Shown: positions 1,219 to 3,931 of the stretch, one piece after another
Numbering within the stretch: position 1 is the stretch's first letter
Layout: each line of letters opens with the position of its first letter
From: a virus
Lineage: Duplodnaviria > Heunggongvirae > Uroviricota > Caudoviricetes
Direction: 5' to 3' (one strand)
Virus record (IMG/VR): IMGVR_UViG_2531839234_000021
DNA: 4,566 nt
Notes under the pieces: model-generated
Databases searched by the model: none
The model's input: the letters and a program-made list of their open reading frames with translations, nothing else
Told to the model about the DNA's origin: nothing
Position numbers and translations under genes: made by a program

Positions 1219-1626
1219 TTATTTATTTGCGCTTCTTTTGCGAGCTTTGAGTAGTTCTTCAAAAAGTTTGTTGAAATTCTCAACTCGAGCACGCATCTCT
1301 GACAACAGAGCCTTTTGCTCTGACTCAGGCAGTGCGTCGAACAGTTGAAGCAACTCTTTTTGATCTTCTGTCAGATTGACTGGCTGATTATCTGGGATCG
1401 GTTCGCCTGGTTGCTTATCTTCATCTCCAAAAAGAAGCCAAGTCGGCGAGCACTGAAGCGCCTGGCTCAGTGCGAATAATCTCTTCCCCGCTGGCTGTGT
1501 TTCATCTCTTTCCCATTGAGAAATTGTTACGTGAGCCACTTTGACCAGCTTACCTAATGCGGCCTGAGACAGTTTTAATTTTTTTCGCCTGTATAAGAGG
1601 CGAGCACCGAAGGTTTCGTTTTTCAT
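1219..1626 (-). CDS. dicA: Prophage repressor, XRE-family HTH with a C-terminal helical domain and no S24 peptidase domain (DicA-like, 135 aa)
   Basis: Complete ORF. N-terminal HTH signature (LSQAALGKLVKVAHVTISQWERDETQP). Divergent from a Cro-like gene across an operator-rich intergenic region. Length and architecture match E. coli DicA as I recall it. On the same strand as dicF. Confidence 0.85.
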   Translation of the reverse strand: MKNETFGARLLYRRKKLKLSQAALGKLVKVAHVTISQWERDETQPAGKRLFALSQALQCSPTWLLFGDEDKQPGEPIPDNQPVNLTEDQKELLQLFDALPESEQKALLSEMRARVENFNKLFEELLKARKRSANK

Positions 1627-1930: not shown

Positions 1931-2465
1931 ACAGGTTTGTGAGGCTCTGGATACCTGGGTATGCCGACCAGGAATGACACAGGAGCAGGCGACGATATTA
2001 ATCACGGAAGCATTCTGGGCTCTGAAAGAACGCCCGAACATCGATGTTCAACGCGTCACGTTTAATGATGGCGAGGTTGATCAACGGGCGCTGGGCGTTA
2101 ACCGGGTGAAGATATTCGAACGCTGGAAAGCTATCGACACCAGAGATAAGCGTGACAAATTCACGGCGCTGATTCCGGCAATTATGGAGGCTATCCGGAT
2201 CAGCGATTTCAGGTTGTATTGTGAAATTACTGACGGAAAAAGCATTACGTACATGATCGCCGGGTTAAACAAAGAATATGGCGATGTGGTGGAGTCCGGG
2301 CTGCTTTTTGCGGATCCAGTTGTTGTGGAACGTGAGACTGACGAGCTTATAGAAAAAGCTATTGCTTTCAAGCACGCGTATCGTCAGCAATACCAATATT
2401 ACTTTGCAGATAAACAAATGTCTGCCAGGGGGGCGTATGAGTATCGATGCACTACGATGGGCTAA
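1914..2465 (+). CDS. cII-position regulator, YdaT-like protein, 183 aa
   Basis: Complete ORF overlapping the cro stop by 17 nt and overlapped by the next gene's start. Position between cro and the replication initiator. The family assignment to YdaT/DUF1019 is from memory and tentative. Confidence 0.75.
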   Translation: MKITTEQVCEALDTWVCRPGMTQEQATILITEAFWALKERPNIDVQRVTFNDGEVDQRALGVNRVKIFERWKAIDTRDKRDKFTALIPAIMEAIRISDFRLYCEITDGKSITYMIAGLNKEYGDVVESGLLFADPVVVERETDELIEKAIAFKHAYRQQYQYYFADKQMSARGAYEYRCTTMG

Positions 2466-3477
2466 AAAGGTGAAAACCGGCAGTTCATCCAGTAAGTCAG
2501 TATTGACCTGGCTTGCTGATATGTGCGGTGCCGATTTGTGTGCATACCCGTCTGTATCTGCACTGGCAGAAGTAACGGAACTGAACAAAAAGACTGTGCA
2601 GGACAGCTTACGACACCTGATGGAGATTGGGTTAATTGTTGATACCGGTGAGAGAAAAGGCAGAACAAAGCAAATTGTGGTGTACCGACTTATCGGTGTA
2701 GAAGAAAGTGTTGCCGAGCCTGAATACACCCAAAAACGGGAGTCTTTAAAGGTGGGTAAAATTGGTGCTGTTAATAAAAACAGTACCGAAAATGGTTATG
2801 TTTCAGCACAAAACAGACCCAAAAACAGAACTCTTAGCTGCATGGAAAATAACCAAAGACACCCAAATTTTCCATCAAAGACACCCAAAAACGGATCACG
2901 GAACCCAAAGGAACCCAAAGATCTAAACCCCACACATAACGCACGCGAGAGTGCTCCGACCAGTGAGCAGGAAGTTTTGTCGTTACAGGCAGCCCCCCCT
3001 GTATTCCTGTATGGCCTGAGCGAACCCATCGGAAAATTCCCGATGAGCGATAGCTGGTATCCGTCACGGGATTTTCGACGACGGGCTGCGTTGTGGGGGA
3101 TGGCTTTGCCGGAGACAGAATTTACACCTGCTGAACTTGCCGCCTTCCGGGACTACTGGGCAGCGGAGGGGAAAGTGTTTACGCAGATTCAGTGGGAGCA
3201 GAAATTCGCCCGTCACGTAAATCACGTCAGGGCGCAGGTTAAACCAGTCAGCAAAGGGGTAAACCATGCAGCAGCACCAGGTGGCACCGCATCACGGGCA
3301 GTTCAGGAAATTCGGGCAGCACGTGAGCAGTGGGAACGTGAAAACGGATTTATCAGCGACGGAAACGGCCTGGAAGCTGTGGGAACTCATGGGGGAGGTT
3401 TATTCGAACCGCTGGACCCAGAAGAACGGGGCCGCACCTTCGAAGCTCTGGATTGCACAGATTGGCGCGATGACTGA
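2437..3477 (+). CDS. Replication initiator, lambda O-like: N-terminal HTH DNA-binding domain, low-complexity linker encoded by iterons, C-terminal domain
   Basis: The long ORF begins at 2362, but the likely start is ATG 2437 preceded by a G-rich Shine-Dalgarno (GGGGGG 2428-2433). The N-terminus (MSIDALRWAKK...SVSALAEVTELNKKTVQDSLRHLMEIGLIV) looks like a phage replication-initiator HTH. Iteron-like repeats lie in the middle of the gene. It is immediately followed by a P-like gene. Confidence 0.8.
   Translation: MSIDALRWAKKVKTGSSSSKSVLTWLADMCGADLCAYPSVSALAEVTELNKKTVQDSLRHLMEIGLIVDTGERKGRTKQIVVYRLIGVEESVAEPEYTQKRESLKVGKIGAVNKNSTENGYVSAQNRPKNRTLSCMENNQRHPNFPSKTPKNGSRNPKEPKDLNPTHNARESAPTSEQEVLSLQAAPPVFLYGLSEPIGKFPMSDSWYPSRDFRRRAALWGMALPETEFTPAELAAFRDYWAAEGKVFTQIQWEQKFARHVNHVRAQVKPVSKGVNHAAAPGGTASRAVQEIRAAREQWERENGFISDGNGLEAVGTHGGGLFEPLDPEERGRTFEALDCTDWRDD
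2804..2935. repeat. Iteron-like direct repeats (core ACCCAAA); candidate prophage origin of replication inside the initiator gene
   Basis: AGACCCAAAAA 2815-2825; AGACACCCAAA 2857-2867 and 2879-2889 (22-bp period); GAACCCAAAG 2901-2910 and 2911-2920 (tandem, 10-bp period); degenerate copies AACCAAAG 2851-2858 and AAACCCCACAC 2925-2935. An AT-rich stretch lies just upstream (~2745-2815). Confidence 0.5.
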
Positions 3478-3931
3478 GCAGCAAATCCGGCAGGTCTGCC
3501 GCCAGTGCATGGACCGCTGCCGGGCGGGTGAAACATGGCCTCCGGACCTGGCTGAGTTTGTGGCGTTGATTTCGGAGAGCGGGGCAAATCCATTTGGCCT
3601 GACGGTGGATGCTGTGATGGAGGAGTACCGTCGCTGGAGGAATGAATCCTGGCGGTACGACGGGAGTGATAAATACCCGTGGCCTCAGCCTGTGCTGTAC
3701 CACATTTGCCTCGAGATGCGTTCAAAGGGGATTGAGCGCCAGATGACCGAAGGGGAGTTAAAACGGCTTGCAGAAAGGCAGCTGACGAAATGGGCAAAGC
3801 ATGTTGGTAATGGCCTCAGTGTTCCGCCAGTCCGGCGACAACTGGCAGCACCCAAACGCCCGCCAGGGCCAACGCCAATTGAATTGCTGAAACAGGAATA
3901 TGAGCGCCGGAAGGCGGCCGGTTTTGTCTGA
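3266..3931 (+). CDS. Replication protein P-like (DnaB helicase loader), 221 aa if it starts at 3266
   Basis: Complete ORF. RBS AAAGGGG 6 nt before ATG 3266. The C-terminal two-thirds align by eye with lambda P as recalled (EFVALI ~ QFVAWC; [44 protein letters not shown] ~ YPWKSNAHYWLVTNLYQNMRANALTDAELRRKAADELVHMTARI). The start is uncertain; an alternative is ATG 3470. Confidence 0.8.

Follow-up and report, generated by a model that had tools for sequence, protein, structure and literature searches.

Organization of the Initiator and Loader Genes

We analyzed a 4,566-nucleotide (nt) stretch of DNA (hereafter the window) from a Caudoviricetes virus (IMG/VR record IMGVR_UViG_2531839234_000021) that carries, one after the other, the genes of a replication initiator and of a helicase loader resembling phage lambda's P protein. 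The two open reading frames (ORFs) overlap out of frame from position 3266 to 3477, sharing 212 nt, with the loader (P) frame at +1 relative to the initiator frame. The initiator frame runs from its annotated start, ATG 2437, to the stop codon TGA 3475-3477. An earlier reading of the window from its letters alone (hereafter the original prediction) had drawn attention to this overlap; its coordinates were exact, with both frames open. The features that bear on the overlap are the following:

2437..3477, plus strand: replication initiator, 346 amino acids (aa), YdaU-like (ORF; bounds as annotated in LC567818)
3037..3237, plus strand: DnaT-like domain for binding single-stranded DNA (PF17948, residues 201-267), the last recognized domain before the initiator tail
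3253..3260, plus strand: predicted Shine-Dalgarno sequence of the P-like gene, AAAGGGGT, within the initiator codons Lys-Gly-Val
3266..3931, plus strand: lambda-P-like helicase loader, full length 221 aa (ORF; Pfam PF06992)
3266..3345, plus strand: part 1 of the overlap, where the P frame is an unconstrained, disordered leader (residues 1-27)
3286-3345, plus strand: conserved, probably helical part of the initiator tail, rich in A/R/E/Q (from initiator-frame constraint)
3356..3477, plus strand: part 2 of the overlap, where the P frame encodes helices 1-3, including the motif AWxLWExMGEIYSNRWTxKNG
3356-3474, plus strand: end of the initiator tail (last ~40 residues), Gly-rich and acidic (net charge -8), variable in sequence but open
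3389..3391, plus strand: in-frame ATG, Met42 of the long loader, annotated as the start in Salmonella, Citrobacter and Klebsiella by the Prokaryotic Genome Annotation Pipeline (PGAP)
3470..3477, plus strand: ATGACTGA, an in-frame ATG (Met69) over the initiator stop TGA 3475-3477; the PGAP/GenBank start in E. coli (153 aa)

We propose that this module carries a genuine 212-nt overlap in which the loader would be translated from ATG 3266, that constraint is divided between the two halves of the overlap, and that the end of the initiator and the loader form a portable unit in which we infer a docking role for the initiator tail. Based on the sequence comparisons described below, we estimate the probability of this reading at about 0.78.

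Conservation of the Overlap and Start Signals of the Loader

We located the loader, the in-frame starts upstream of it and the upstream gene in each of 41 loci that have an initiator upstream, namely the window itself, 8 close relatives and 32 loci taken from genomes, which together represent ~20 genera. The overlapping arrangement was present in all 41, with a length of 149-227 nt and the same relative frame throughout. In every locus the initiator stop fell 50-122 nt past the position equivalent to 3389, mostly at +86, and the extension of the initiator frame into the loader gene is, therefore, not a recent read-through. A homologue whose initiator frame ended near 3266 was sought, and none was found among these loci. 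The comparison confirms, at the level of sequence, a real, conserved and long co-directional gene pair.

The start signals of the downstream gene are conserved inside the initiator gene. In the window, the element AAGGGG (3254-3259) lies 6 nt before ATG 3266 and pairs with the 3′ tail of the 16S rRNA with a duplex energy of -7.9 kcal/mol. At the equivalent position across the loci the energy averaged -9.5 kcal/mol and reached -6 or lower in 40 of 41, compared with 13% of background positions; the means were -6.2 kcal/mol at Met42, -3.9 at Met69 and -3.0 for the background. Every one of the 41 loci had an ATG that lay 29-42 codons upstream of Met42, 5-9 nt past the Shine-Dalgarno sequence and often directly after a P-frame stop codon. 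The good ribosome-binding site that the original prediction saw at 3266 thus proved to be a family-wide feature. The signals also leave a mark on the initiator protein: a Gly-Gly pair followed by x-[His/Asn/Asp]-[Ala/Val] is conserved in an otherwise variable linker at the beginning of the tail, and the codons of these residues, read in the other frame, are the Shine-Dalgarno sequence (GGAGG) and the ATG. Further, the initiator codon that supplies the AT of the loader ATG ended in T in 10 of 10 diverged lineages, despite a synonym ending in C. The computed effect of T3267C is to change the loader ATG to ACG while leaving the initiator His unchanged. The RNA around ATG 3266 (fold of 3226-3306) was nothing unusual (z-score, 0.33). 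No internal promoter or terminator was found in a scan of 2900-3600, nor did an Rfam scan of the whole window return a match.

Evidence from the openness of the P frame upstream was dropped as an argument for the start. P-frame stops make up 4.1% of codons in homologous initiator genes and, at this rate, 68 open P codons upstream of 3470 would occur by chance with a probability of ~0.06 per single sequence. We gave up the argument because synonymous recodings of the initiator leave the leader frame open in 60-95% of cases (product over 10 lineages, 0.055) and because, within 3266-3345, a P-frame stop cannot arise by any single change that is synonymous in the initiator.

Sequence Conservation and Predicted Fold of the Loader

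The downstream gene product is a lambda-P-type helicase loader, as assigned by sequence and predicted fold. It matched the Pfam family PF06992 with 59.7 bits (cutoff, 26), residues 56-188 aligning with profile positions 28-161, and thus belongs to the family. An alignment of 31 homologues, with identities down to ~42%, revealed the near-invariant residues Met42, Arg49, Trp50, Lys53, Asn54, Gly55, Pro58 and Trp62 and, upstream of Met42, a conserved A-W-x-L-W-E motif in which Trp36 and Trp39 are invariant. All of these residues are encoded upstream of ATG 3470, and conservation in the family reaches residue ~30. The AlphaFold2 model of the 221-aa protein had a mean predicted local distance difference test (pLDDT) score of 79.6, with values below 50 for residues 1-26 and a confident structure from about residue 30. 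Helices were predicted at residues 25-46 (with high confidence), 48-54 and 60-67. A start at 3470 would, therefore, remove three helices and a start at 3389 would cut the first one.

The best Foldseek matches of the model were lambda P chains in the complex with DnaB (9oa1_Z; E = 3.2e-6; 216 aligned columns). The template modeling (TM) score was only 0.45-0.5, as expected for flexibly linked domains, and the lambda P fold (domains II-IV) was recognizable. In lambda P, domain I (residues 1-29) is disordered, domain II (~30-119) is compact, and domains III and IV follow (PMC12661323). The predicted layout of the loader, with a disordered leader and a domain starting at about residue 30, corresponds well to domains I and II. 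By sequence, the resemblance is shorter than the original prediction had estimated by eye (back to about residue 40): phmmer reached residue 71, hhalign residue 85 and the Pfam P model residue 56. Homology to lambda P could, thus, not decide the start, and we used family conservation and fold to place the N-terminus because the homology stops at residues 71-85.

Partitioned Constraint Across the Overlap

We examined nucleotide diversity in an alignment of 23 loci with 63-96% DNA identity. From 3266 to 3345 diversity peaked at the third codon positions of the initiator, and the periodicity passed from the initiator frame to the P frame between P codons 27 and 31 (nt 3344-3358). P-frame periodicity was apparent from codon ~31 onward, and codons 31-41 were under purifying selection. 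Ratios of nonsynonymous to synonymous change (pN/pS), pooled by the Nei-Gojobori method for each region and frame, shifted in the same place:

Initiator only, 3037-3264: pN/pS 0.38 in the initiator frame, 1.29 in the P frame
Overlap part 1, 3266-3345: 0.46 in the initiator frame, 1.07 in the P frame
Overlap part 2, 3356-3474: 1.85 in the initiator frame, 0.21 in the P frame
Loader only, 3479-3928: 2.12 in the initiator frame, 0.21 in the P frame

Single nucleotide polymorphisms (SNPs) among 22 near-identical haplotypes of close relatives showed the same division. In part 1, 12 were synonymous in the initiator and changed P, compared with 2 of the reverse kind; in part 2, 15 were synonymous in P and changed the initiator, compared with 3 of the reverse (Fisher's exact test on the split, p = 2e-4). 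Neither frame was broken in any of the haplotypes. The 80 best IMG/VR loci were at least 97% identical in the loader protein and, adding no diversity, were used for SNP spectra only.

These substitution patterns show a division of constraint between the two parts and not a doubling of it: in each half, the segment opposite the constrained frame is unconstrained and probably disordered. The original prediction had supposed that much of the overlap codes in both frames. This was upheld insofar as both frames are open in 41 of 41 loci, but purifying selection acts on one frame only in each half, as indicated by its low pN/pS, and not on both proteins at once. Likewise, the suppression of synonymous change that dual coding would leave was present but weak, synonymous divergence of the dominant frame in the overlap being lower by only ~20%.

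Domains of the Initiator and Its C-Terminal Tail

The initiator matched the DnaT family PF17948 with 61 bits (cutoff, 25), which identifies a DnaT-like domain, and gave a weak N-terminal match to HTH_36 (20.9 bits, under the cutoff of 25). The NCBIfam DnaT model scored 93 on residues 194-278, below its equivalog cutoff of 201, so the protein is a domain relative and not DnaT itself. We found no match to Phage_rep_O (PF04492) in the window initiator at E-values up to 0.01. The label "O-like" that the original prediction attached to this gene is, therefore, a positional and functional analogy only, and kinship with lambda O was not borne out.

Past the DnaT-like domain lies a C-terminal tail of ~75 residues with the pattern GG-xHA...SRAVQxIRAARExWERE...G..GG.L.EPLD.EER..D..D. 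No similarity of the tail to lambda O was detected, and a protein search with a 93-residue tail returned only near-identical fragments. To assess the variable end of the tail we recoded the loader with synonymous codons drawn by each locus's own codon usage, a procedure that involved 27-51 initiator codons. The initiator frame stayed open with a probability of 0.04-0.35 per locus in 40 of 41 loci (0.72 in L043); the product over 10 lineages with diverged third positions was 1.6e-9. Four single-base substitutions within 3356-3474 of the window would introduce an initiator stop and leave the P protein unchanged; none of them was seen in any locus. One is G3361T, computed to keep the Thr codon of P while creating a TGA in the initiator frame. 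In addition, in 10 of 10 lineages the tail carried a more negative net charge than stop-free recodings do on average (individual tail fractions, 0.000-0.42). Thus, the last 40 residues of the initiator seem to be selected for their presence and charge rather than their sequence, that is, for composition without selection on sequence.

Alternative Explanations

The loader could start elsewhere. If it began at ATG 3389, the protein would have 180 aa, the overlap 89 nt, and the frame upstream would be open by chance. More than 90% of homologues have this Met, and many RefSeq entries have the corresponding 177-181 aa; also, the open P frame over 3266-3345 is weakly informative. The selection on codons 31-41 and the invariant Trp36 and Trp39 lie upstream of it, however, and the start would fall inside the confidently predicted helix 25-46. 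Trp-Glu codons provide a moderate Shine-Dalgarno-like match in half of the loci (the mean of -6.2 kcal/mol given above), weaker than the universally conserved one at the upstream ATG. Moreover, Buttiauxella (L026) and Dryocola (L029) carry CTG at this codon and Vibrio phage D75 has a Leu codon there, so that in these lineages the conserved motif can come only from the upstream ATG. We consider ATG 3389 probably an internal Met, possibly a secondary start and unlikely as the sole one, and the short-overlap reading built on it as improbable. Still less credit can be given to ATG 3470, from which termination-reinitiation coupling at ATGACTGA would give 153 aa and an overlap of 8 nt. The original prediction recognized the coupling geometry of ATG 3470 and TGA 3475, and the geometry is indeed classic; PGAP, Rac-SA53 and pPE4 annotate the start there and a minor short isoform is possible. 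As the main start it was rejected, and no functional start was found at the stop codon: conserved sequence and fold begin ~115 nt upstream, the Pfam P model matches from residue 56, ahead of Met69, the P frame is under purifying selection over 3356-3469, and three confident helices would be lost. The site has no Shine-Dalgarno sequence (-3.9 kcal/mol is near background), the codon is TTG, CTG, TTC, TGC, TGT or CTC in 10 of the 41 loci, and the initiator stop wanders from +50 to +122 in distant loci. A family that starts consistently at this position, with an upstream frame free to vary, is thus not what the loci contain. A programmed +1 ribosomal frameshift that fuses initiator and loader, with the internal Shine-Dalgarno-like sequence as its stimulator rather than a start signal, would suit the +1 relation of the frames and the conservation of that element, and a lambda O′ product reading into P has been reported (PMC3640518). 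We rejected it, as very improbable, on the geometry of the start: an ATG 5-9 nt after the Shine-Dalgarno sequence, often directly after a P-frame stop, is the arrangement of an initiation site. Furthermore, we noticed no conserved slippery or hungry-codon site, and the z-score of 0.33 gives no hint of a stimulatory structure. ATG 3266 is, on these sequence features, the best supported main start.

A harder case is an overlap that is real but half functionless, in which the last ~40 residues of the initiator are a tolerated read-through and the first ~27 of the loader a tolerated leader, the loader starting so far upstream only because the initiator linker is the nearest site for a Shine-Dalgarno sequence and ATG. 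Here lie the points that weigh against our own reading. The loader leader (3266-3345) evolves like non-coding DNA in the P frame (pN/pS of 1.07, compared with 1.29 in the initiator-only region), as do the last 40 initiator residues in their own frame (1.85, compared with 2.12); the leader is predicted to be disordered, the ~20% drop in synonymous divergence is small, and a function for the initiator end would be read from frame openness and charge only. The recoding results on the leader frame described above count on the same side, and PGAP systematically picks shorter starts. Since the leader resembles non-coding DNA and its open frame is barely informative, the exact start rests on the ATG, the Shine-Dalgarno sequence and the three lineages without Met42. 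Our significance estimates are also approximate, as they assume independent lineages and uniform codon usage along the gene. Nevertheless, an initiator frame kept open for 27-51 codons in all 41 loci is hard to reconcile with mere tolerance (the joint expectation being the 1.6e-9 reported above), as are the available P-synonymous stops that never appear, a tail more acidic than its recodings in every one of the 10 lineages and a leader length held at 29-42 codons. A half-functionless overlap is, thus, unlikely in our view, and we favor the reading in which ATG 3266 starts the loader and both halves of the overlap are maintained.

A Portable Tail-Plus-Loader Unit

We found one and the same tail behind initiator bodies of six kinds:

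HTH_36 plus DnaT-like: the window
DUF1376 plus DnaT-like: L005
Phage_rep_O: L023 (94 bits)
HTH_36/DnaD_N: L024 and Vibrio phage D75
DUF1376 alone: L026 and L027
Bodies without a Pfam match

Loci with unrelated bodies and the common tail were L005, L023-L027, L032, L035, L036 and L045. The tail and the loader gene thus occur together behind unrelated initiator bodies, and they appear to move as one cassette. The variety of bodies behind one tail, together with the contrast to phage phi80 described below, fits an N-terminal loader domain matched to the initiator tail. From these sequence relationships, the tail is most likely a loader-docking adaptor.

In the mechanism that we envision, the loader would be translated from its own Shine-Dalgarno sequence and ATG 3266, both carried by a permissive initiator linker, Gly-Gly-x-His-Ala, that lies just past the DnaT-like domain. 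Over the first ~80 nt, a conserved, probably helical segment of the initiator faces a disordered, freely evolving loader leader, the counterpart by position of domain I in lambda P, its disordered "lasso" at the N-terminus. Over the last ~120 nt, helices 1-3 of the loader face the flexible acidic end of the initiator, the frame of which is kept open. Such an overlap could keep interacting partners genetically inseparable while the origin-binding domains are exchanged upstream. A more tentative proposal, to which we give less than even odds, is that the overlap is an interaction cassette whose ~210 nt encode the docking tail, with its conserved helix and acidic end, as well as the beginning of a loader domain specific to the initiator. 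Because both would lie in the same ~210 nt, recombination could not separate the partners. If true, prophages could swap initiator bodies (HTH_36, DUF1376 or Phage_rep_O, with or without the DnaT domain) onto a fixed tail-plus-loader unit, a structural solution for partner specificity in mosaic phage genomes.

The locus also illustrates how an overlap may persist cheaply, a stretch under constraint in one frame being paired with one that is disordered and unconstrained in the other, and it identifies a portable tail-plus-loader unit on at least five different initiator architectures. As T3267C and G3361T each affect one protein without changing the other, recognition between initiator and loader becomes directly testable.

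Annotation of the Loader in Public Records

The loader has been annotated with several starts. PGAP places it at 3470 (153 aa) in E. coli, as do the Rac-SA53 and pPE4 records, and at the equivalent of 3389 (177-181 aa) in Salmonella, Citrobacter and Klebsiella; in LC567818 it begins at the equivalent of 3509 (140 aa). Forms of 215-223 aa are held in the NCBI nr database and in other NCBI and metagenome records, and the long ORF is, therefore, already in databases. The RefSeq loaders of E. coli (153 aa; WP_000139485.1 and similar) and of Salmonella and Klebsiella (~180 aa) seem to lack part of their N-terminus. Three helices of the folded domain are missing from the 153-aa form and ~40 residues from the ~180-aa form, with consequences for structure prediction, interaction modeling and family models.

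Genome Context

The window comprises the region for immunity and replication of an E. coli Rac-like lambdoid prophage. ORF and profile searches identified these neighboring genes:

1219-1626, minus strand: CI/DicA-like repressor
1703-1930: P22-Cro-like gene
1914-2465: YdaT-like gene
From 3966: DUF1627 gene

With the gene bounds of LC567818, shorter same-strand overlaps join the Cro-like and YdaT-like genes (17 nt, 1914-1930) and the YdaT-like gene and the initiator (29 nt, 2437-2465). The initiator gene also contains ACACCCAAA-type direct repeats (2723-2919; three 24-nt and three 14-nt copies). Placed like the ori iterons in lambda O, they may be a candidate prophage origin.

The closest records to the window were the PPompW/Stx2a prophages (97% identical) and Rac-SA53 (92%), and the tail-plus-loader segment was present in ~1,250 of 5,426 complete E. 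coli genomes. Some copies have decayed: the initiator is frameshifted in L004 (E. coli O157:H7 493/89), a frameshift fuses the frames in L040 (Leclercia), and the loader is truncated in L044. Two loader genes without an upstream initiator (L033 and L041) stood beside chromosomal genes (a TtcA-like gene and a phosphotransferase system transporter). They were considered as non-overlapping controls and dropped as weak evidence; they are prophage remnants, because the adjoining genes are chromosomal.

Comparison With Known Systems

As in lambda, a P-type loader gene directly follows the initiator gene, and the loader has the lambda P fold and PF06992 domain with a disordered N-terminus before a compact domain. 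The iteron-like repeats within the initiator gene may be comparable to ori-lambda, which lies inside O. Unlike the pair described here, O and P of lambda share no more than 4 nt (39582-39585). The initiators differ as well, the one in the window having HTH_36 and DnaT-like domains in place of Phage_rep_O and a tail without similarity to lambda O, and the loader resembles lambda P in sequence only from residue 71-85 on. The longer O′ product mentioned for lambda (PMC3640518) is only loosely analogous.

The gp14 protein of phage phi80 (L047; also "replication protein 14" of HK639, HK225 and mEp237) is 48-50% identical to residues 93-221 of the loader. By contrast, phi80 genes 15 and 14 overlap by 4 nt, and the initiator and the N-terminal half of gp14 are unrelated to those of the window. 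Because similarity to phi80-type gp14 begins only at residue 93, the loader seems to consist of two modules, of which the N-terminal half is exchangeable, and the N-terminal difference fits an initiator-specific region in this part of the loader. Nearer to the window, ydaU/ydaV of Rac-SA53 and their PPompW counterparts have 92-97% DNA identity over the tail and loader, with both frames open alike, and differ in annotation only (ydaV begins at the equivalent of 3470, with 153 aa, and the loader of PPompW at that of 3509, with 140 aa). The ydaV gene of the E. coli K-12 Rac prophage, which we take to encode a DnaC-type loader, is not of the P type.

The first 212 nt of the loader ORF of Vibrio phage D75 (L045, 1801-2460) lie inside an HTH_36/DnaD_N initiator whose tail end resembles that of the window, and the product is ~31% identical to the loader over residues 1-132, with a C-terminal half that is, unlike the rest, not similar. 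The annotation of this gene begins only at 2134, and its product is entered in truncated form as a "hypothetical protein". The loader ORF of Vibrio phage 199E37-1 (L046, 1687-2328) similarly starts 194 nt inside the initiator. Vibrio helicase loaders related to VdhL have been described next to lambda-O-like or DnaD-like genes (PMC11087808), and those of D75 and 199E37-1 may be related to them. A description of the overlap was not found in the full-text literature searched, nor in the Vibrio loader paper (PMC11087808).

Long overlaps are uncommon, as the original prediction had remarked, and a comparison with prokaryotic genomes indicates how much so. Phages are known to tolerate gene overlaps. 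A systematic survey of 715 co-directional overlaps exceeding 60 bp judged none to be real, and the longest overlap that it accepted, holD/rimI, spans up to 56 bp (PMC2478687). With the longest accepted case at 56 bp, a conserved overlap of 149-227 nt is unusual for bacterial-type gene organization. The pair in the window shares with the surveyed overlaps the basic configuration, two same-strand genes with more than 60 nt in common in different frames, and gene callers disagree on the downstream start, which was the survey's usual class of error. Unlike them, it is conserved over many genera and the comparative evidence favors the long form. The locus thus provides a well-supported co-directional overlap in a class for which the survey had accepted no case.

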